From the IMG/VR virus record IMGVR_UViG_3300027764_000031, positions 1-24,413 of that record: a DNA stretch of 24,413 nucleotides. One strand, written 5' to 3'. The notes below the pieces were generated by a model, which saw nothing but the letters and a program-made list of their open reading frames with translations, was not told the DNA's origin and searched no databases. Position 1 is the stretch's first letter, and each line of letters opens with the position of its first letter. Origin of the DNA: a virus (lineage: Duplodnaviria > Caudoviricetes). The position numbers and the translations under genes are program-made. Shown here in pieces: positions 6,502-24,264 of the stretch.

Positions 6502-7343
6502 CTCTGCTCCTGTAATTTCTTTAATGCCCACGCTGGCAACCCAATGTCGACGACATCGTCCTGCGGCCATCCCGGATACTTGTTCTCGACAACACACTTC
6601 CACCACAGTTTCTGCAACTCGGGCAAACGCTCGCTGTAGCAGTCCATGACCTCGTCGCTCATTCTGTAGACCGCAGTTCCAAACGGAGCCACGGACTCAA
6701 CGACTAAAAACACAAATGAGAAATCGTCGGGCAACATGCGACCTGACGATTCCATTGCGGATCGCAACACGGCCCGATACCAAGCCGCTTGCATGCCGTA
6801 TCCAAAGTTGGCAATCGACTTCTCAAAATCACAAGCAAGGTCGCGTGTGGTCTTTAAGTCACAGACCATGCCGTGACCGTTCCACGCATCAAGCCGGGCC
6901 TTGGCGGGAAAGCCGCCGATCTCGCCAAACACGCTGACCTCACGCTTCTTGCATGCGCTAAGGCAATGCTTGATGCGCCAATCACGATTGCACGCGGCGA
7001 TCATGCCGTCAACTTGTTGCGCCTGATCTGGCGTGATGATGCATCGCCCCTCGTTTAATGCGGCGAAGGTGGCGTACTCCTCCTTACCTAGTTTTGTGCG
7101 CTTGTCTACATCGGGACTCACAACCGCCTGCGCTAAATCATTCTCAGGCTCAAGAATCCCCGCATGCGTAGCAGAACCGACTGCAAGCGCAGGTGATGAC
7201 ATCGGAGTTTCCATCATCTCCTTTGCGTGCATCGGTGTGCTGCTTTGCAACTTGCGAGCAAGTGACGACCCGACCGCGTCATCGCTGTGATACGCAAGCG
7301 CAGGCAAATTCTCGACGATGCAATTTCGTAGACGCAGACTCAT
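6498..7343 (-). CDS. RecE/exonuclease VIII-like PD-(D/E)XK nuclease (DUF3799-like)
   Basis: YHSD..VGSS, GSATHAGILEP, KARLD, CDLKTT, YGMQAAWY, FVFLVVES; start at ATG 7343 (ATGA overlap). Confidence 0.9.
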   Translation of the reverse strand: MSLRLRNCIVENLPALAYHSDDAVGSSLARKLQSSTPMHAKEMMETPMSSPALAVGSATHAGILEPENDLAQAVVSPDVDKRTKLGKEEYATFAALNEGRCIITPDQAQQVDGMIAACNRDWRIKHCLSACKKREVSVFGEIGGFPAKARLDAWNGHGMVCDLKTTRDLACDFEKSIANFGYGMQAAWYRAVLRSAMESSGRMLPDDFSFVFLVVESVAPFGTAVYRMSDEVMDCYSERLPELQKLWWKCVVENKYPGWPQDDVVDIGLPAWALKKLQEQR

Positions 7344-7735
7344 GCGACACCTCGCATTTGTCGCCACGCTAAAACAGCACGCTGCATCAACGACGACTTC
7401 TGCACTTCGCTCACGAGGTCACGCTCAAGGATCTCGCGCACCATGTCGCCCTGCCCGAGCGAGACCAGTGGGATCTCCTTCGGTAGGTCGCCCTGCAAGA
7501 TCTTCTCGCAGGCTGTCATCACTGACTGAGGATCTGCCTCTGCGACTGGATCAAGTAGACGGATCACATCGCCGAGTCGGCTTGCGATCACTAACTGAAT
7601 CGCCATCGCGCCGTGTCGGAGTTGCTTCGCCTCGAACGGCTTTGTCGGTTCGATCCTCGCGGCCAATCCTCGAAGCCGATCCATTGCCAATATCACATCC
7701 TCTGCCCTGTCTCCCCATGTTGCGTCCTTGCTCAT
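7340..7735 (-). CDS. Hypothetical protein (131 aa), first gene of the early operon
   Basis: AAGGA RBS; coupled to the RecE-like gene; overlaps the integrase ORF tail in another frame. Confidence 0.7.
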   Translation of the reverse strand: MSKDATWGDRAEDVILAMDRLRGLAARIEPTKPFEAKQLRHGAMAIQLVIASRLGDVIRLLDPVAEADPQSVMTACEKILQGDLPKEIPLVSLGQGDMVREILERDLVSEVQKSSLMQRAVLAWRQMRGVA

Positions 7736-8849
7736 TCTGCATCCTTATCTGACTGACCAATTGGTCAATCGAGTGGATCAGACGGTCAATCGGGCTGTCG
7801 TTACAAATCCCGCCAACCCGATTTGCGTCTGATTGCAGCGAGTGAGAGTGCCCACGAGGGCTCAAGTGTTCAAGCCCGAGGCCCCCGCGAGCACACTCAT
7901 TCGCTGCATTTGTAGTAGTTGAGGGCTTGAACACATGTGCAGAAGAACATGGCTGATCCTGCTTGTCAAGGGCTGTAGATGATAAATCTTTCCCGAATTG
8001 TGAAATTTTTTCTATGCCTGCTTTGAGGGTCGAATCCTTGTGACGCAAGTAGCGATGGGTTTGATCCACGCTTTTGTGCCTGACCAACTTCTGAATCAGG
8101 TCAGCCGGCACGCCTAATTCAAATGCGCTGGTGATGAACCCGACGCGCATGCGATGCCACTTGCCACGCCCTTCAATGCCGCAACTTTTCATGTCCCGAT
8201 CAAGTCCCTTCTGCGTCGGGTAATCCTCGAACACCATTTCGCCTTGGCTGATTTGCCGCCACGCTCGCAGCGTTGTCACGACGCTCGCGGATATAGGCAG
8301 TGTGTCTCTTCGTCGACTCTTATCTTTTGTGACCTTGATTTCTGCACGCTCTAAATCGATGTCATCCCACCGTTGACATCGCCATTCACCCCAACGCATG
8401 CCAGTGCCGTTGAGCAGTCGGTACAGCACGGCTCGAGCGTTGGCGTTGTTGCGGATACGGCCATCAGGATGACGCGACGCACGCTCGGCGGCGACGATCA
8501 ACCTATTGACCTCGTCTTGTGTGAGTGCGTCTGCGCCAACGCCAGCGCGTCCACGCGGAGCGGGTATCGACACCCACGGATTGATTTTGAGTCTGCCTTG
8601 CACGACGAGCCAACCCGCAAACTGCCTGCATAAACTCATGCGATTGCGCACGGTCTGCGGCGAGAGTTTGCGACTCATGCTCATCGCACTCAACCATGCG
8701 ACGCATGATGCGGGTGTAAGTTTGTCGCCTGCGTGTTCAACCCAACGCCGCGCCCATCGCCCGGCGTTCTTGGAATGATGTATGTCATAGCCTTGTTGAT
8801 CAACAAGCCATACTTCCCACGCAAGTACCTCGTCAGTCAGCGTTAACAT
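7551..8849 (-). CDS. int: Tyrosine integrase with a long C-terminal extension
   Basis: N-terminal SAM-like region (LSPQTVRNRMS); catalytic R (GMRWGE), K, HxxR (WHRMR), H (VRHKS) and Y (THRYL). Start at ATG 8849 preferred over 8912 because a -10 box lies just upstream. Confidence 0.9.
   Translation of the reverse strand: MLTLTDEVLAWEVWLVDQQGYDIHHSKNAGRWARRWVEHAGDKLTPASCVAWLSAMSMSRKLSPQTVRNRMSLCRQFAGWLVVQGRLKINPWVSIPAPRGRAGVGADALTQDEVNRLIVAAERASRHPDGRIRNNANARAVLYRLLNGTGMRWGEWRCQRWDDIDLERAEIKVTKDKSRRRDTLPISASVVTTLRAWRQISQGEMVFEDYPTQKGLDRDMKSCGIEGRGKWHRMRVGFITSAFELGVPADLIQKLVRHKSVDQTHRYLRHKDSTLKAGIEKISQFGKDLSSTALDKQDQPCSSAHVFKPSTTTNAANECARGGLGLEHLSPRGHSHSLQSDANRVGGICNDSPIDRLIHSIDQLVSQIRMQNEQGRNMGRQGRGCDIGNGSASRIGREDRTDKAVRGEATPTRRDGDSVSDRKPTRRCDPST
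7788..7825 (+). other. Candidate attP core: tRNA(Pro)-like 3' end with flanking inverted repeats
   Basis: CAAAT-CCCGC-CAACCCG-A (7804-7821) fits T-loop end, 5-nt T-stem strand, 7-nt acceptor strand, G72/A73. Inverted repeat AATCGGGCTGTCG (7788-7800) / CGCCAACCCGATT (7811-7823), 11 of 13 matching. Second inverted repeat CAAATC/GATTTG (7804-7809 / 7820-7825). Confidence 0.65.
7834..7934 (-). ncRNA. Candidate structured RNA: 75-nt hairpin with its loop complementary to an upstream 12-mer
   Basis: Hairpin 7908-7834 with about 30 pairs including 5 G-U; GGGCTTGAACAC (7877-7866) is the exact complement of GTGTTCAAGCCC (7934-7923). Confidence 0.6.
7941..7969 (-). promoter_or_regulatory. Candidate early promoter inside int
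   Basis: Perfect TTGACA (7969-7964), AT-rich upstream tract, 17-bp spacer ending TGT, but a weak -10 (TCTTCT). Confidence 0.35.
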
Positions 8850-8886
8850 TCGGGTTGGATTGTAGGCAGTAAAACCACAAAGACAA
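8848..8886 (-). promoter_or_regulatory. Candidate int promoter overlapping a copy of the attP core-type repeat
   Basis: TTGTCT-N16-TACAAT-CCAACCCGA-ATG; ATTCGGGTTGG (8848-8858) matches the attP arm AATCGGGTTGG at 10 of 11 positions. Confidence 0.55.
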
Positions 8887-8944
8887 AATAAGCGCCAAAA
8901 AGTTTCAAGCATATTCCGACATTCGGTCTTAATTTGCTCCGACT

Positions 8945-9460
8945 TTAGCCGCCCGATAATTTATGGATGATCGATTTCGCCACGCCCGCCACCGCGTCCA
9001 CCGCGCTGGCGACGCTTGCGCCAGTGCCTTCGACCTTACCCCACTTTGCGAGCGGGCATTCAACGCCCGCCAGTGTCACCTTCACGGTGAGCATTGCACG
9101 CGGGTTGTTTCCGCAGCCGCACTTGGTGCACCACCCAACGCCGCCTGCGTCGGTCTGTTCCTTATAAGTTACAGCCCGATGCTTGCACGCCATGCAGATC
9201 GCAAGTCGCGCCGCCGCGTCTGCTTCGCTAGCAGGGCCTTGCGTGGCGTGTGTTAGTTCGGCGCGGGCGTAATCTTTTGCTAGTTGAATCTGTGTCCGTG
9301 CTTGCGTTTCACTTTGTATCAGTGCTTGCGGGACTCCGTCTATCACTCGGTGCTTGCAATATTTTCTACACACTCCCAATGTAGGCTTTTCCCAATGTTT
9401 AGCGGCACAACATCCACCGCCCTGCACTCCGCATTCTAGCCAATGGTCGCAAATTTTCAT
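8945..9460 (-). CDS. Cys-rich protein with a DUF6171-like C-terminal motif
   Basis: 12 Cys; RLAICMAC...CTKCGC...K...CPLAKW. Confidence 0.7.
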   Translation of the reverse strand: MKICDHWLECGVQGGGCCAAKHWEKPTLGVCRKYCKHRVIDGVPQALIQSETQARTQIQLAKDYARAELTHATQGPASEADAAARLAICMACKHRAVTYKEQTDAGGVGWCTKCGCGNNPRAMLTVKVTLAGVECPLAKWGKVEGTGASVASAVDAVAGVAKSIIHKLSGG

Positions 9461-10491
9461 GATACTTCAAACCTAGTTACTACCCAAGGAATTGAATGCC
9501 CGCCTGTTGATGTAGCAGTTCCACAACAAGGTGTATATGTATTTGTAGATAAACTTCCACTACCAGAAGTAAAACTGTACCCATCAAAAATATCATTATA
9601 ATGATATGTGGGATTGTTTAACGGGTAAGAAGCAATTAGTGGCGACCAACATGAATATTGCGGAGTAGTTGTACCAAAAGTAAAAGACATATAATACGAG
9701 TAGGGTACGCTAGCCCACGCAAGTGCTCCGCATTGATTAGGTAGCGCGTAGTTGGTTCCATCCCCTTTTAACAAAAAAACGGGTATGCAATAATCTGTAG
9801 AAACCGCAGGATAACTCCAATCAAAACAAGATGCACCACCAAAATCATCCGCTACATATGCGATATGTTGATAAAAAAGCCTTGTATCAGTTGCAATACT
9901 TGCTGTTCCATTTGAATAAAAACTATTTTCTTCGCATATACCCGCAACCATTTTTATATTAAATCCCCCACTCCACCCGCAGCCAACATCGGGGTACACA
10001 CATTGACACGGATCAGTTTCAGGATCAGGTGGATAATTATTATTAATGACAATACATGTGATAATGGCTTTGTATGGTGTTGAAGCATTACTTGGATTTC
10101 TACGATCCTGACACCCTGGTGGACAAATTACATCGCCACATCCCACTGCTCCAATACCATCTTCACCTAAATACACTTCTCCAGTAATAGTATTTGGCCA
10201 CGCGCTACACGCATCTACATCTCCACAATACATTCTATATTGGCATTGGGGAGTTTGTGTCATCGGCGGGTATTCAGAATTACAAATTTCATTAAATTTT
10301 TTCATCACAAAAGAAAATGTGTACGGAGTTCCATCCCAAGTTAAATCAATTTCCACAGTTACAAAGCCAGGCAGTGAATTTATGTAAGTTGGTGATGTTG
10401 AATAATCACAAGAATTTGTTTCAGGCTCAACCGCTGAACATGTTGCGTTGCATTGATTACAACAACATCCCGCCGCGTGCATCAAACTCAT
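9457..10491 (-). CDS. AT-rich Cys-rich protein, possible virion or receptor-binding protein
   Basis: Start at ATG 10491 (GGAGGT RBS, ATGA overlap); MSLMHAAGCCC; about 24 Cys; rich in Tyr, Thr, Ser and Gly. Function is inferred only. Confidence 0.65.
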   Translation of the reverse strand: MSLMHAAGCCCNQCNATCSAVEPETNSCDYSTSPTYINSLPGFVTVEIDLTWDGTPYTFSFVMKKFNEICNSEYPPMTQTPQCQYRMYCGDVDACSAWPNTITGEVYLGEDGIGAVGCGDVICPPGCQDRRNPSNASTPYKAIITCIVINNNYPPDPETDPCQCVYPDVGCGWSGGFNIKMVAGICEENSFYSNGTASIATDTRLFYQHIAYVADDFGGASCFDWSYPAVSTDYCIPVFLLKGDGTNYALPNQCGALAWASVPYSYYMSFTFGTTTPQYSCWSPLIASYPLNNPTYHYNDIFDGYSFTSGSGSLSTNTYTPCCGTATSTGGHSIPWVVTRFEVS

Positions 10492-10991
10492 TTCGTCGAC
10501 CTCCCCCACGCCGCCGCAAACAGTGGATCACTCGCCCGCTTCGCCGCCACAAATTCACGCGCCGTAGTCGGGTCATCACTGAGCATCTTGCCCGCGAGAT
10601 CTGCCTCGTTCTGCACTCGGCGCGGAATCCAACCGATAGCAAGTCGGATGAGCGTTCCTAGTCCTGTCTGCCACAGCGCCACCACCAGCGCCACCGCAAC
10701 AACGGCTACTAAACCCCATTGAATCAGTGTCATCCAAAATGGCACGATGTCTTTAACTCCCGCCACGGCCGTTGATATCTGCGAAACCTCATGCAGGATC
10801 ACCGCAGTGTCGCCTTTTATGACAACAGCCGCAGCCACAATCTCGGGCTGAGTCGAGTTTGCCGCAATGAACCCTGCACGCTCAGAGATTGAGTGTGCTG
10901 CGCTTGCGGCGACGCTGGCGCTGCTGGCGATCTCCTTGGTCGCAGAACAGCCCGCTGTGAGGGCGGCAAGAACTATCGCTTGTCGAACCAT
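10488..10991 (-). CDS. Lipoprotein with a second transmembrane segment (unimolecular-spanin-like topology)
   Basis: Signal MVRQAIVLAALTAG-C-S (lipobox); later hydrophobic helix WGLVAVVAVALVVALW. Confidence 0.65.
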   Translation of the reverse strand: MVRQAIVLAALTAGCSATKEIASSASVAASAAHSISERAGFIAANSTQPEIVAAAVVIKGDTAVILHEVSQISTAVAGVKDIVPFWMTLIQWGLVAVVAVALVVALWQTGLGTLIRLAIGWIPRRVQNEADLAGKMLSDDPTTAREFVAAKRASDPLFAAAWGRSTK

Positions 10992-22191: not shown

Positions 22192-23855
22192 TGCATATTT
22201 CCTTCTTCGTAGATTGATGTCTTGTTGTCTGCGTCTTTGTGCACCATGCACGCCAACGCCGTGACGAGCGCGGCGATGCAATCGATGCGCTCCGTCGAAC
22301 TGCTTTTCGATGGTTTGATATTGCCTGCGGGATCGGTGTCGATCATCGTGTTGGCCATGCACCAGTCGGCGACTGGATGCGCGGCGTGCTTTAACTTCTT
22401 GCCGAGGACAAGTGCCTCGAGTGCTTTAGAACCTTCTGAGAGACTGCGATAACCTTGTCGCACTTCAAGCATTGGCAGACCTTCCTGTTGCAACCCGACG
22501 GCGAATTGCGTTGCATTCCAAGGGTCGTAGCCGACTGCCTTCACCGAGCGTGCGATCTTTGATATGTCGCGGATCTTCTGCGCCACATATTCGTAATCGA
22601 CGACATCGCCCGGCGTGGCAATCAGTGAGCCTTGCGAAGCCCAAGTGTCATAGGGAACTCGATCAACCCGCGCTCGTCTGCGGATGCCGTTCTCGGGACA
22701 GAATGCGTATGAAAGAAATGCGACATTCTCATCTTCGTCAACATTGATCACAGCCACGGAACTCAAGTCCGTCGTGGTGGACAAGTCGCATGCAATTATG
22801 ATGTCCTTGCCCGCAAAGTATTGCTCATCAATCTCAGGCGCGGCGCACGCGGCCCACGACTCGAGCGAGATCCAGCGCTTCTTTGTTTCTGTCCACTGGC
22901 AGAGATACAACTGCCTGAAGGCTATTTCGTGTCCTGGCAACTCCTGCGCCTTCTCGCATTCGCTTTGCAAGAATGATTCTTCAACGCTCACGCCGAGATT
23001 CGGATTCGCCGCACGCCACACCGCTGGCGATTTCCAGTCTGCATCTTTGTCCGCGCCGAACAGCACTGGCAAGTGCGAGCGATCCACCACAGTGCCCGAG
23101 CGCACCTTCTCCGCAAATTCTCTTTGCTGATAGCACAGCGAGTGCTTGTCATGGCCCGCAGTGGTGATCGCAATCGAGAGCGGCTCTTGTCGTGCGCCGA
23201 CTCCAGTCTGCATCGCATCCCACAGATCACGATTTGGAGCCGTGTGCAACTCGTCGTAGATGATGCACGATGGACTCTTGCCGTGCTTCGTGCCAGCGTC
23301 CGCGCTCAAGATTTCAATCTTGCCGTTGTTCTTTGAGCATGTGATCGTGTTGCGATAGATCTCGAGCACGCTCGACAACGCAGGACACGCACGGATCATC
23401 GCCTTGCATGCGTCGCCGACGATGGCCGCTTGATCTCGACTTGATGCACAGCAGTAAACTTCAGGGCTATTTTCGCCGCTGGCGAGCAACGACCACAGCG
23501 CAAGGCCCGCGCAGAGTTGACTTTTCCCCTGCTTTCTTGCCACTTCGATGTATGCCGAGCGATAGCGGCGCGTGCCGTCGGCGCGTTGCCAGCCGATCAA
23601 GTTGCCGACGATCGCCTTTTGCCACGCCTGCAACTCGAAGGGCTGACCAGCCCACTTGCCTTTAGTGTGTTGCAACGCCTGCGCAAAGAATGCGAAAGCC
23701 GCGTCGGCTTTTGATTGCACGAAGTGATCGCCGTCGCCCGCAGTCGCGACTGCGTCGTAGCCGGGCAAGTCGTATCGCTTAGGATCCGAACTTGAACAGG
23801 TTTTTGATCGTGTCTTCTTTGCTATCGCCAGCGGCTTTCTGACCTTGAAGTGCAA
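22182..23855 (-). CDS. terL: Terminase large subunit (start uncertain: TTG 23855 or TTG 23768)
   Basis: Walker A ARKQGKS, Walker B IIYDELH, ITTAG, CDLSTTTDLS, YDPWNA, RIDCIAA. Confidence 0.95.
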   Translation of the reverse strand: MHFKVRKPLAIAKKTRSKTCSSSDPKRYDLPGYDAVATAGDGDHFVQSKADAAFAFFAQALQHTKGKWAGQPFELQAWQKAIVGNLIGWQRADGTRRYRSAYIEVARKQGKSQLCAGLALWSLLASGENSPEVYCCASSRDQAAIVGDACKAMIRACPALSSVLEIYRNTITCSKNNGKIEILSADAGTKHGKSPSCIIYDELHTAPNRDLWDAMQTGVGARQEPLSIAITTAGHDKHSLCYQQREFAEKVRSGTVVDRSHLPVLFGADKDADWKSPAVWRAANPNLGVSVEESFLQSECEKAQELPGHEIAFRQLYLCQWTETKKRWISLESWAACAAPEIDEQYFAGKDIIIACDLSTTTDLSSVAVINVDEDENVAFLSYAFCPENGIRRRARVDRVPYDTWASQGSLIATPGDVVDYEYVAQKIRDISKIARSVKAVGYDPWNATQFAVGLQQEGLPMLEVRQGYRSLSEGSKALEALVLGKKLKHAAHPVADWCMANTMIDTDPAGNIKPSKSSSTERIDCIAALVTALACMVHKDADNKTSIYEEGNMQWV

Positions 23856-24264
23856 CCCGACTCGAAGCAGTCAAACCGAAGTGAGTGATGATCCGCCACG
23901 CCGCGTCGCGCGACTCCCGACGCGCTCGTGCCCAAGGATTCATCATCGGTATGCCGCCTTTGCCCTCGATCACATCGCCACCTGACTTTACAGCCATGTG
24001 TGCGGCGTGCTCCCCGAGAGCAATTTCGTTTGCAAGCATGCTGACGGCGATGCCGTCTTGCTCCTTTAAAACGCCCAACTTCGTAATCTGTGACACGACG
24101 AGATCGAAGATTCTTTTGCTCTCGATGTTCTCAGTGATGCACGGCAACATTAGCGGTGCGCCATCAGTGCCGACAACTTCTGTCTTGGCACGACGGGCCC
24201 CGAGTCGCGATCCTCGAAGGGTCATGATTGATGTTGGTGTCGGAGCGGGGCCGCGTCGTCCCAT
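23779..24264 (-). CDS. terS: Terminase small subunit (P27-like)
   Basis: MGRRGPAPTPT..LRG...NPW...FGLTASSRV. Confidence 0.9.
   Translation of the reverse strand: MGRRGPAPTPTSIMTLRGSRLGARRAKTEVVGTDGAPLMLPCITENIESKRIFDLVVSQITKLGVLKEQDGIAVSMLANEIALGEHAAHMAVKSGGDVIEGKGGIPMMNPWARARRESRDAAWRIITHFGLTASSRVALQGQKAAGDSKEDTIKNLFKFGS

Follow-up and report, generated by a model that had tools for sequence, protein, structure and literature searches.

Where does the integrase gene of this phage end, and does integration rewrite that end? The question is raised by a reading frame that runs far past its catalytic tyrosine and crosses, in antisense, what looks like the 3′ end of a tRNA. The window, that is the whole stretch of DNA analysed here, comprises 24,413 nucleotides; the phage comes from a freshwater source. 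The integrase gene (int) lies on the minus strand at 7551–8912 as a single open frame of 453 codons from the ATG at 8912, or 432 codons from a second ATG at 8849. The profile search places a tyrosine recombinase domain (PF00589) over residues 130–293 of the protein, Int (8034–8525, minus strand; 63.2 bits against a curated cutoff of 27.1), and Int also matches the integrase family phrog_1 (E = 1.5e-36). The tyrosine recombinase catalytic motif consists, in order, of R..K..HxxR..H/W..Y. R173, K198, H253, R256, H279 and Y288 of Int, to which we assign the catalytic roles by order only, are unchanged in sets of 14 and 34 relatives. Past the Tyr288 codon (8049–8051) we counted 165 open codons, the length that the initial annotation had given.

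Int is one of the simple (arm-less) tyrosine recombinases of Xer-like type and has two domains. Its AlphaFold2 model is helical from residue 25 and consists of a CB domain followed by a CAT domain, and the N-terminal arm-binding domain is absent. The best sequence and fold matches are XerA (5hxy), an XerC-like protein (4a8e), residues 75–356 of lambda Int and the Brujita integrase (5vfz). We rejected its assignment to XerC, XerD or XerA proper because the NCBIfam Xer models match only below their cutoffs. A search with Int returned 2,892 representatives at E ≤ 1e-10. Profile searches recognised neither a repressor nor an excisionase in the window.

The tRNA-shaped element proposed to lie antisense within the Int frame, bracketed by inverted repeats, is present at 7804–7821. 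Read on the plus strand, these 18 nt (CAAATCCCGCCAACCCGA, with TA before them and TTT after) match positions 56–73 of tRNA-Pro exactly: part of the T-loop, the 3′ strand of the T-stem, the 3′ strand of the acceptor stem and the discriminator A. On the int strand the codons here read, as had been stated, CGG GTT GGC GGG ATT TGT (R V G G I C). The assignment to tRNA-Pro held for 90 of the 90 ARAGORN-called genes within two substitutions of the core in the loci that we retrieved. ARAGORN calls no tRNA gene in the window, in line with the earlier remark that the host tRNA lies outside it, and Rfam gives no tRNA match for the 18-nt core. The last of the six codons, codon 370 (7803–7805, minus strand), carries the predicted hazard. 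At 7803 the phage has an A where tRNA genes have T55, and a T there would make the codon TGA. The phage T-loop reads TACAAAT and not TTCAAAT as in tRNA-Pro genes, and the Int codon is therefore TGT rather than TGA. Cys370 is residue 349 when counted from M22, and a stop in its place would leave 369 or 348 residues. By simple arithmetic the expected count of one given 18-mer over the two strands of 24 kb is about 7e-7; because 10^4–10^5 distinct tRNA ends could have matched, the lone match is not decisive. It is the comparison across the Int family that makes it so.

Among 13 aligned relatives the 18-mer is constant but for one A/G difference, and in the same sequences the 9–10 nt to its left and the 6 nt to its right are variable. 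At this position relatives of Int have at least four further kinds of tRNA-like end, and a helix of the form ERL[IL]..QQG follows each of them. Three of these four modules were read as DNA (..CAAATCCTGTCACCCCGA, TTCGAGTCCCCCACCGCCCA and TTCGAATCCTGTAGCGCCCA) and the fourth as peptide only (GATGFEPV, in P0066). On a quick tree built from the catalytic part, module type follows the branching, with four changes, the minimum possible. For modules 3 and 4, the extra IMG/VR matches (L333, L336 and L339) gave partial tRNA-like ends only, in which ARAGORN calls nothing. This exchange of tRNA-like ends at one position, always with the helix behind them, gives good support to a putative attP within int as a trait of the family, and the proposal that attP lies within int in this phage gains from the same comparison.

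The relatives also bear on the stop codon. In phage copies the Int codon after the isoleucine is TGT, TGC or TGG and never TGA, so the TGN register whose conservation had been proposed as a check is kept. Among 25 distinct phage contexts, base 55 is always A or G, and in P0046 and P0053 a C is deduced from Trp; the residue after the isoleucine is Cys in 56 Int proteins and Trp in 2. Module 3 has the same register, but with G57 the codon is CGA (Arg), and there the TTC of the T-loop is intact. Contig size did not separate short-tailed from long-tailed forms among 10 distant relatives.

A single relative, P0052 (MCE9618412.1), is found outside contigs of 27.3 kb or less: it lies on an 821,817-bp contig of a Planctomycetota MAG. 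Aligned end to end with its phage homologues by BLASTP, it ends in SRGNRI where those read SRGDRIC... Read in antisense, TTCAAATCCTGTTACCCCGA gives exactly SRGNRI followed by TGA, and one tRNA-Pro(CGG) gene does have this 3′ end; the stop codon and adjoining tRNA of P0052 are deduced from the protein alone. A MAFFT placement had P0052 ending after the helix, which we rejected as BLASTP puts its end at the SRGDRI of module-2 phages. The TGN codons of phage copies, the G57 relatives with an intact T-loop and the end of P0052 together give indirect support, at the level of sequence, to a stop codon that integration would write into Int.

An imperfect palindrome (7777–7833) is centered on the T-loop and has the core as its right arm. 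The inner arms (7788–7800 and 7811–7823) are 13 nt long with 11 positions paired, the outer arms (7777–7784 and 7826–7833) are perfect over 8 nt, and the spacer TTACAAATCC occupies 7801–7810. A T-loop-centered palindrome occurs in all 9 of the representatives examined, which span the four modules read as DNA, and in one relative (L152) arms of 28 nt enclose exactly TTCGAGT. We predict that the arms at 7777–7833 flank the crossover region as binding sites of the core type. With the axis of symmetry on the T-loop, base 55 may lie within that crossover (overlap) region, where a mismatch matters. A symmetric site with arms on either side of the T-loop, as here, is a feature of the T-loop sublocation class of tRNA-targeting integrases, which is outlined in 10.1101/2020.11.02.365908 and in the abstract of PMC1762012.

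Beginning 12 nt past the tRNA-like end, a long hairpin (7834–7908, plus strand) is likewise embedded in int codons. It is conserved and has a z of −7.3, 8 of its 30 pairs are changed on both sides, and the G-U cells comprise 65 on the plus strand only versus 12 on the minus strand only. The terminator scan did not call it, and sub-threshold Rfam matches to microRNA precursors were taken as meaningless.

Hairpin and core sit in the DNA of a linker (codons 309–373, 7794–7988, minus strand) that is predicted to be disordered: pLDDT is below 50 for residues 292–375, so that some 80 residues after Tyr288 form a disordered stretch. Over the linker codons pN/pS is 0.53 in the Int frame. The linker leads into a conserved C-terminal helix (SPIDRLIHSIDQLVSQIRMQNEQG; codons 374–397, 7722–7793, minus strand; helix predicted at 374–397), which is found after every tRNA-like module. 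In 34 relatives of about 40% identity L385 and Q388 never vary and L378 hardly does; among close relatives selection on the helix is weak (pN/pS 0.65). The last approximately 60 Int codons (7551–7735, minus strand; pLDDT about 30) overlap the downstream gene ORF131 (7340–7735, minus strand) in another frame. Over the overlap the Int frame has a pN/pS of 1.48 and that of ORF131 one of 0.27; 8% of synonymous resamples leave the Int frame open (p about 0.08). By these sequence measures the last approximately 60 codons bear no sign of selection as Int, and the same two values led us to reject a function for the whole 84-residue tail. The initial annotation had integration removing those 84 residues. 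A stop at codon 370 would indeed leave 348, but only about 27 of the residues lost (371–396) are conserved and the rest are unselected. ORF131, which in a prophage would lie at the attR end, belongs to no family and has no Atlas neighbor in profile and neighbor searches.

We consider it probable, though some way from assured, that 7804–7821, an exact antisense copy of a tRNA-Pro 3′ end in int, serves as the attP core, the block of identity with attB, and that integration ends Int after Ile369 at the TGA supplied by the host T-loop. In such a reaction Int dimers would bind the two palindrome arms and exchange strands in or beside the T-loop. The junction on the int side would consist of the 5′ part of the host tRNA, through T55, joined to phage DNA from C56; it would rebuild the tRNA and at the same time set TGA in the int frame. 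Int of the prophage would then have 348 or 369 residues and be without the conserved helix. By analogy with the IntP and IntX forms of phage Mx8, the shortened enzyme would be expected to have altered activity, and an arm-less recombinase, of a kind whose relatives are called directionless, would thereby be given a built-in record of the integration state of its genome.

The junctions themselves, or prophages at tRNA-Pro, were proposed as a check, and none for this phage or its close relatives came to light in the contigs, loci and eight sequencing runs that we searched. Genome contigs searched with the Int alignment gave only three short MAG contigs, with the free form, and the 400 scored genomes of the class of G002 gave one match, the phage contig of G002 itself. 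No Int relative lies near the tRNA-Pro genes of 118 metagenome loci searched by tblastn; 150 IMG/VR tRNA-Pro loci likewise gave none, the only integrases there being unrelated (26–32% identical). Scanning for the non-T55 form gave 14 attP sites of the family, three unrelated contigs and no attR. Logan contigs from the eight runs, mapped to the region, show no host junction at 7803 or 7821; run X7 has a single loose end, at 7803, which is the variable segment of a relative phage.

An attP as proposed need not bring an immediate stop on integration, a reading that we judge unlikely while giving it more weight than any other alternative. It could come about in two ways. A host tRNA-Pro with TTCGAAT or TTCGAGT would supply CGA instead of TGA, and Int would gain a new tail of 12–73 residues from antisense tRNA and upstream DNA, as Mx8 IntX does; or, with the base-55 mismatch inside the overlap region, the phage allele could persist in attL. 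The candidate host genes bear on the former. In a scan of metagenome contigs that covered 2 of the 64 parts of the collection and left T-loop bases 57–59 free, matches to the core were mostly tRNA-Pro genes: 66 have TTCAAAT..CAGCCCGA, 26 TTCGAAT..CAGCCCGA and 3 TTCGAAT..CAACCCGA, and one more CAACCCGA match has TTCGAGT. TTCAAAT was thus met only alongside CAGCCCGA, the variant that most relatives have, and no tRNA-Pro gene in these 2 parts joins it to CAACCCGA, the variant of the window. With the CAACCCGA genes the Int codon would be CGA, and Int would continue for 29–61 residues. Among 76 tRNA-Pro-like genes, 45 would give R-A-G-G-I-stop in the Int frame; the other 31 lack A57, and of these 29 would add 12–73 residues and 2 have no stop in the 300 nt read. 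The TGN register, the end of P0052 and the 45 genes that give a stop favor the predicted TGA; against it, the tRNA-Pro genes met with the window's own variant have TTCGAAT or TTCGAGT, and no attL or attR came to light in the searches above. The left palindrome arm of the window, however, still matches the CAGCCCGA variant, which suggests that the A of CAACCCGA is a recent change. The phage also keeps A57, which is relevant only with a TTCAAAT source tRNA, and base 55 is the sole base changed. Where G57 removes the hazard, as in module 3, TTC is left unchanged, and P0052 terminates exactly at the Ile codon. The position of the T-loop at the palindrome center favors persistence of the phage allele, for a mismatch there could hinder exchange or leave a heteroduplex resolving to either allele. 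That Mx8 acquires a new 3′ end and not a bare stop also speaks for continued reading.

Two further alternatives do away with integration at the core. The palindrome could be a lox- or dif-like self site that resolves multimers of a replicating or plasmid-like phage genome, its tRNA likeness being ancestry only. A simple, Xer-like Int, a palindromic site next to or within its own recombinase gene, phage-sized contigs for nearly all family members and a window in which no repressor was recognised all fit this picture. We nevertheless think it improbable, as a self site needs no exact copies of tRNA ends to the discriminator base, in five versions, and P0052, on its 821-kb contig, stops at the codon in the T-loop. 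Least probable of all, in our view very much so, is that the tRNA likeness is a functionless relic or chance, with the true attP elsewhere and the long Int frame an accident. The unselected last 60 codons, open by chance at p about 0.08, agree with an accidental frame, and the 18-mer also occurs in three unrelated IMG/VR contigs, and simple arithmetic leads one to expect two or three chance matches in a collection of that size. A constant core between hypervariable flanks in 13 aligned relatives, modules swapped at one position and conserved residues beyond the core speak against a relic or chance. We retain the reading of the core as a predicted attP at which integration probably ends Int.

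Phage Mx8, which targets tRNA-Asp, and Mx9, which has the same layout, place the att site in int, and the activity of Mx8 IntX is reported to differ from that of IntP. Mx8 is a close precedent: as far as the text of PMC6070905 describes it, attP lies within int downstream of the catalytic Tyr, and int receives a new 3′ end on integration. In the Mx8 record int runs antisense through an intact tRNA-like T-arm, acceptor end and CCA about 60 codons after the Tyr, and continues for about 110 beyond. The window shares with it an antisense copy of a tRNA 3′ end in int downstream of the catalytic Tyr. The enzymes themselves differ: the best BLASTP segment covers 33 residues (E = 0.008), Mx8 is absent from the tblastn matches at E ≤ 1e-5, and Int of the window is a short, arm-less, Xer-like enzyme. 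In Mx8, moreover, the T-loop frame (G-L-E-P) never meets TGA and the T-arm is intact, whereas the frame in the window meets TGA and base 55 is changed.

Other known systems are further removed. In the integration-dependent immunity of mycobacteriophage BPs, attP lies in the repressor gene (gp33), and integration removes an ssrA-like degradation tag. In the window int takes the place of the repressor gene, a conserved helix would be what is removed, and the end of the Int frame (..RRCDPST) does not resemble such a tag. The SSV1-type "suicidal" integrases also have the att site inside the integrase gene, according to the portions of PMC5861418 and PMC8371274 that treat them. There the gene is split and the enzyme interrupted. 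In the window the site is 77–82 codons past that of Tyr288 and leaves the catalytic domain uninterrupted, and Int is accordingly not of the SSV type. The integrase of Roseburia phage Shimadzu, in the account available in 10.1101/575076, has its integration site within int and lytic and lysogenic forms that differ in the last 22 residues; it is a large serine recombinase with no tRNA T-loop stop, unlike the tyrosine recombinase of the window. Like the Brujita integrase, Int combines CB and CAT without an arm-binding domain, though the similarity to 5vfz is weak (E = 1.3e-4). The word "directionless" for such enzymes comes from the title of a 2016 paper by Lunt and Hatfull. The simple, arm-less class of phage tyrosine integrases is treated in PMC8138268, where the sections on Brujita give no att site within int.

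A wider proposal is one that we advance tentatively and regard as possible but doubtful. There may be a large undescribed clade of arm-less, Xer-like integrases with attP in a disordered linker, in which the helix is attached only in the circular genome and integration removes it, which would make of a directionless recombinase a one-way switch that works without an excisionase. The universally conserved T55 would act as the stop wherever the T-loop is TTCAAAT, with the phage mismatch alone keeping the gene open. Arm-less tyrosine integrases have no obvious means of telling integration from excision. If the proposal is true, the C-terminus is rewritten by the enzyme's own reaction, and the layout of the site itself would supply directionality. 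The family amounts to a natural experiment in which the stop-making base is changed in phage copies, is left where it poses no hazard, and marks the end of the single chromosome copy. The locus also illustrates that the codons of a disordered linker can have room for several DNA signals, here a predicted att core, a palindrome and a conserved hairpin. Peptides read from antisense tRNA in the tails of integrases suggest themselves as a possible marker by which both attP and the target tRNA could be predicted straight from phage contigs.

The integrase ORF (Int; 7551..8912, minus strand) comprises 453 codons from the ATG at 8912, or 432 from a second ATG at 8849, and its PF00589 match covers residues 130-293. 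Catalytic Tyr288 is followed by 165 codons, in agreement with the long open frame reported in the initial annotation, and across 7804-7821 the int strand reads CGG GTT GGC GGG ATT TGT, as given there. On the plus strand 7802-7821 is TACAAAT CCCGC CAACCCG A, the layout of a tRNA from T-loop to discriminator base. The inverted repeats said to bracket this piece are present: it forms the right arm of an imperfect palindrome with inner arms at 7788-7800 and 7811-7823 (11/13 paired), outer arms at 7777-7784 and 7826-7833 (8/8 paired) and the spacer TTACAAATCC. Run on the window, ARAGORN reports no tRNA gene; the initial annotation likewise places the host tRNA outside it. A sigma-70-like promoter match (TTGTCT-16-TACAAT, 8886 to 8859, minus strand; 1 found vs 1.0 expected) lies within the first 21 codons, its -10 hexamer ending 7 nt ahead of the ATG at 8849, and the second Met is the start in many homologues and in the related protein P0052. 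The true product may be the 432-residue Int, perhaps translated from an mRNA without a leader.

The window spans an entire IMG/VR virus record of 24,413 bp, an estimated 98% complete, with all long ORFs on the minus strand. From 24413 to 1 these encode the small and large terminase, portal, protease, major head protein, connector and tail genes, two Cys-rich ORFs, the integrase, ORF131, a PDDEXK exonuclease (DUF3799), primase/helicase, RusA and an HNH endonuclease, an order that places Int at the boundary of late and early genes. The HNH endonuclease (2-304, minus) and small terminase (23779-24264, minus) lie at opposite ends of the record and would adjoin if the genome is circular or concatemeric. 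The Cys-rich ORFs (171 and 350 aa; 8945-10509, minus) are directly upstream of int; the second lies in a low-GC island (0.40 vs ~0.54) and had no family match in profile searches. Window DNA was detected in freshwater and lake metagenomes. Among deposited phages tblastn found no close relative, the best matches being integrases ~25-28% identical, with Mx8 absent from the matches of Int.

The initial annotation assigned the piece to tRNA-Pro, for which G72 and A73 are identity elements, and the assignment to tRNA-Pro is borne out. Among 589 tRNA genes called by ARAGORN in the fetched metagenome and tRNA-scan loci, all 90 within two substitutions of the window's end are tRNA-Pro (anticodons GGG, CGG or TGG), as are all 102 matching the end of module 2, an alternative tRNA-like end described below. 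A further scan of metagenome contigs used TTCNNNTCCCGCCARCCCGA with no base specified at T-loop positions 57-59; this is the sole loop-unbiased set, since the other loci come partly from scans with TTCAAAT fixed. It yielded 117 stretches from 2/64 parts of the collection (~4,900 estimated for the whole): 66 TTCAAAT..CAGCCCGA, 26 TTCGAAT..CAGCCCGA, 10 TTCGAGT..CAGCCCGA and 3 TTCGAAT..CAACCCGA, plus singletons, some not tRNA. Within those parts the window's own variant, CAACCCGA, occurs only with TTCGAAT or TTCGAGT. The A of this variant is probably a recent change, because the left palindrome arm still matches the G variant. A MAG (G002) that holds a phage contig (L017) also has a tRNA-Pro(CGG) with a TTCAAAT loop (L022, G002:C291), whose 3' end is one base apart from the phage core; that a phage contig of 2.8 kb was binned with this MAG points only weakly to a host.

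The piece was found in 14/14 close viral relatives. In an alignment of the window with 12 of them (70-100% Int identity), the 18-mer at 7804-7821 is invariant in all 13 sequences except for one A/G position, with A in the window and L007. Its flanks, 9-10 nt on the left and 6 nt on the right, are hypervariable, and conservation returns farther out. The variable segments (7794-7803 and 7822-7827) occur though Int is otherwise 86-92% identical between phages; in some variants the left flank looks like the variable-loop and T-stem portion of tRNA-Pro minus three bases, and one variant is a loose end in a metagenome run (X7). The 18-mer with a non-T preceding base also occurs in open frames of three unrelated IMG/VR contigs (L352, L360, L361; 200-nt flanks), about the number that chance predicts, by our arithmetic, for a collection of that size.

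More distant relatives of Int (36-62% identity; 41 IMG/VR loci plus proteins) carry other tRNA-like ends at the same ORF position. Besides module 1, the window's type, we recognized module 2 (T[A/G]CAAATCCTGTCACCCCGA, peptide SRGDRIC), module 3 (TTCGAGTCCCCCACCGCCCA, peptide GRWGTRT) and module 4 (TTCGAATCCTGTAGCGCCCA, peptide WALQDSN, in which W is the antisense of CCA), while the end of P0066 was read as the peptide GATGFEPV. All 9 representatives examined, drawn from the four modules read as DNA, have a palindrome centred on the T-loop with the tRNA-like end as right arm; in L152, 28-nt arms (23 paired) flank exactly TTCGAGT. Module type tracks the tree of the catalytic part with the minimum of 4 changes, against a shuffled mean of 25 (a quick tree, with near-copies inflating the contrast). 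A profile search of 1.84 billion representatives gave 61 matches at E <= 1e-30 and 2,892 at E <= 1e-10, many distant members having a long tail, an antisense-tRNA peptide (WSRGESNP, MEPGGIEPP, TGIRTRG) ~90-110 residues past Tyr and then a helix. By a crude motif count, with Tyr located in 94/148, such peptides occur in 29/72 long-tailed representatives, at 2.60 per 1000 residues in tails vs 0.30 in heads. Relatives at E 1e-35 to 1e-60 (P0087-P0130) show the same arrangement; one of them, P0089, stops 24 residues past the Trp codon, roughly the length of a tRNA, and may represent an integrated copy, contig sizes being no guide either way. The conserved core, exchanged modules, palindromes and tree agreement indicate that attP very probably lies within int, as first proposed.

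The Int frame reads the T-loop as ATT followed by N-G-N, so that TTCAAAT gives ATT TGA. Base 55 of the tRNA, at 7803, is A in 13 (counting two AA contexts) and G in 12 of 25 distinct phage DNA contexts of modules 1 and 2. Among 83 family proteins the residue after Ile is Cys in 56 and Trp (TGG) in 2 (P0046, P0053); 22 have other modules or are fragments and one, P0052, ends there (the regular expression matched an earlier GGI in P0033 and P0025, the true site of P0033 being GGIC). Homologues keep the TGN register whose conservation the initial annotation proposed to test. In module 3 the register is the same, but G57 makes the codon CGA (Arg), and TTC is intact. In these sequences a universally conserved base is altered only where the gene would otherwise close, with module 3 as a natural control.

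The contig that carries P0052 (MCE9618412.1, from a Planctomycetota MAG) is 821,817 bp long, all other family members being on contigs of <=27,294 bp. It aligns end to end with phage protein P0077 by BLASTP, and its terminal SRGNRI corresponds to SRGDRI of P0077, which runs on as CNDTRT..ERLL... Read antisense, TTCAAATCCTGTTACCCCGA encodes exactly SRGNRI plus TGA, and the fetched loci include a tRNA-Pro(CGG) that ends in this way. When 76 tRNA-Pro-like genes were read antisense in the Int frame, the 45 with TTCAAAT gave R-A-G-G-I-stop; of the 31 without A57, 29 would add 12-73 residues and 2 have no stop in the 300 nt read. The proposed conversion of the codon to TGA by a host TTCAAAT would follow with these 45 genes and agrees with the end of P0052, but the window's own end was seen only beside TTCGAAT or TTCGAGT. 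Junctions (attL/attR) or prophages of this phage group at tRNA-Pro were not found in 118 metagenome and 150 IMG/VR tRNA-Pro loci, 400 scored genomes in the class of G002 and contigs of 8 runs. On balance, a T-loop stop upon integration is likely. With the dyad axis on the T-loop, the overlap region may include base 55; a mismatch at this base could then make recombination less efficient, or a heteroduplex could remain from which either allele segregates.

An AlphaFold2 model of Int built with 34 relatives (mean pLDDT 62.6) is a confident two-domain enzyme to about residue 290, with a less confident helix (294-308) past the catalytic Tyr, pLDDT <50 over 292-375, a helix at 374-397 (block 381-390 at pLDDT 69) and pLDDT ~30 over 396-453. 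In fold and sequence Int matches XerA, a XerC-like protein, lambda Int core, Tn1549 Int, Brujita Int, XerH and Cre, and NCBIfam Xer models match far under their cutoffs. By these matches Int is a simple, arm-less recombinase in the sense used in PMC8138268. In 34 sequences, conservation past the core is complete at L385 and Q388 and almost complete at L378. Int-frame pN/pS is 0.16 through the catalytic domain, 0.53 in the linker and 0.65 in the helix segment; over 7554-7734 it is 1.48, vs 0.27 in the frame of ORF131. When ORF131 was resampled synonymously, 8% of trials kept the Int frame open across the full overlap. Given this conservation and pN/pS along the gene, the 84 residues first counted as lost are not 84 functional residues: a prophage Int would lose one conserved helix of ~24 residues and an unselected tail. 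ORF131 (7340-7735, minus) starts within the Int ORF, offset from it by one base, and its frame is under purifying selection (pN/pS 0.27-0.28) where the Int frame is not. Profile searches matched it to no family or PHROG, and an Atlas search gave no neighbour; after integration it would be the phage gene closest to attR.

A long hairpin (7834-7908, plus strand) begins 12 nt past the tRNA-like end, within linker codons, and is kept in 13 sequences, including relatives with another tRNA module. Its z-score is -7.3 vs shuffles, 8/30 pairs have changes on both sides, and pair cells that are G-U on one strand only number 65 on the plus strand (tRNA sense) vs 12 on the minus, the structure itself having been predicted on the plus strand. 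In some relatives TTTTTAGTA follows. A possible role is termination or processing of the transcript from the rebuilt tRNA-Pro; a simple terminator scan did not call the hairpin. Since the att core and hairpin occupy codons of the disordered linker, a module swap need not damage the enzyme.

We infer that Int dimers would bind both palindrome arms, with strand exchange within the T-loop or adjacent to it. The int-bearing junction would consist of the 5' part of the host tRNA, the core and phage DNA from 7822, restoring tRNA-Pro and placing TGA after Ile369; the codons of the orphaned helix would fall at the opposite junction, together with ORF131 and the early genes. In Mx8, attP lies within int, and integration creates a new 3' end that modifies integrase specificity, according to the review PMC6070905. 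The geometry is that of the window. Mx8 int reads antisense through ACGGG TTCAAGT CCCGT ACTCCTC G CCA, 60 codons past Tyr, with ~110 codons farther on; unlike in the window, its frame (G-L-E-P) never meets TGA and the T-arm is intact, and BLASTP detects no significant similarity between the two proteins. The att site of SSV-type integrases splits the gene, in BPs it is the repressor that integration shortens, and Roseburia phage Shimadzu has a serine integrase whose last 22 residues are changed. An att site within int is already known, and a search of literature on such sites, with most subscription journals outside it, returned these cases and nothing on a T-loop stop or this clade. By analogy with Mx8, the two Int forms would differ in activity. 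Such a difference, if true, would lend directionality to an arm-less enzyme that is reversible without it, and the wider clade of similar integrases merits a systematic survey.
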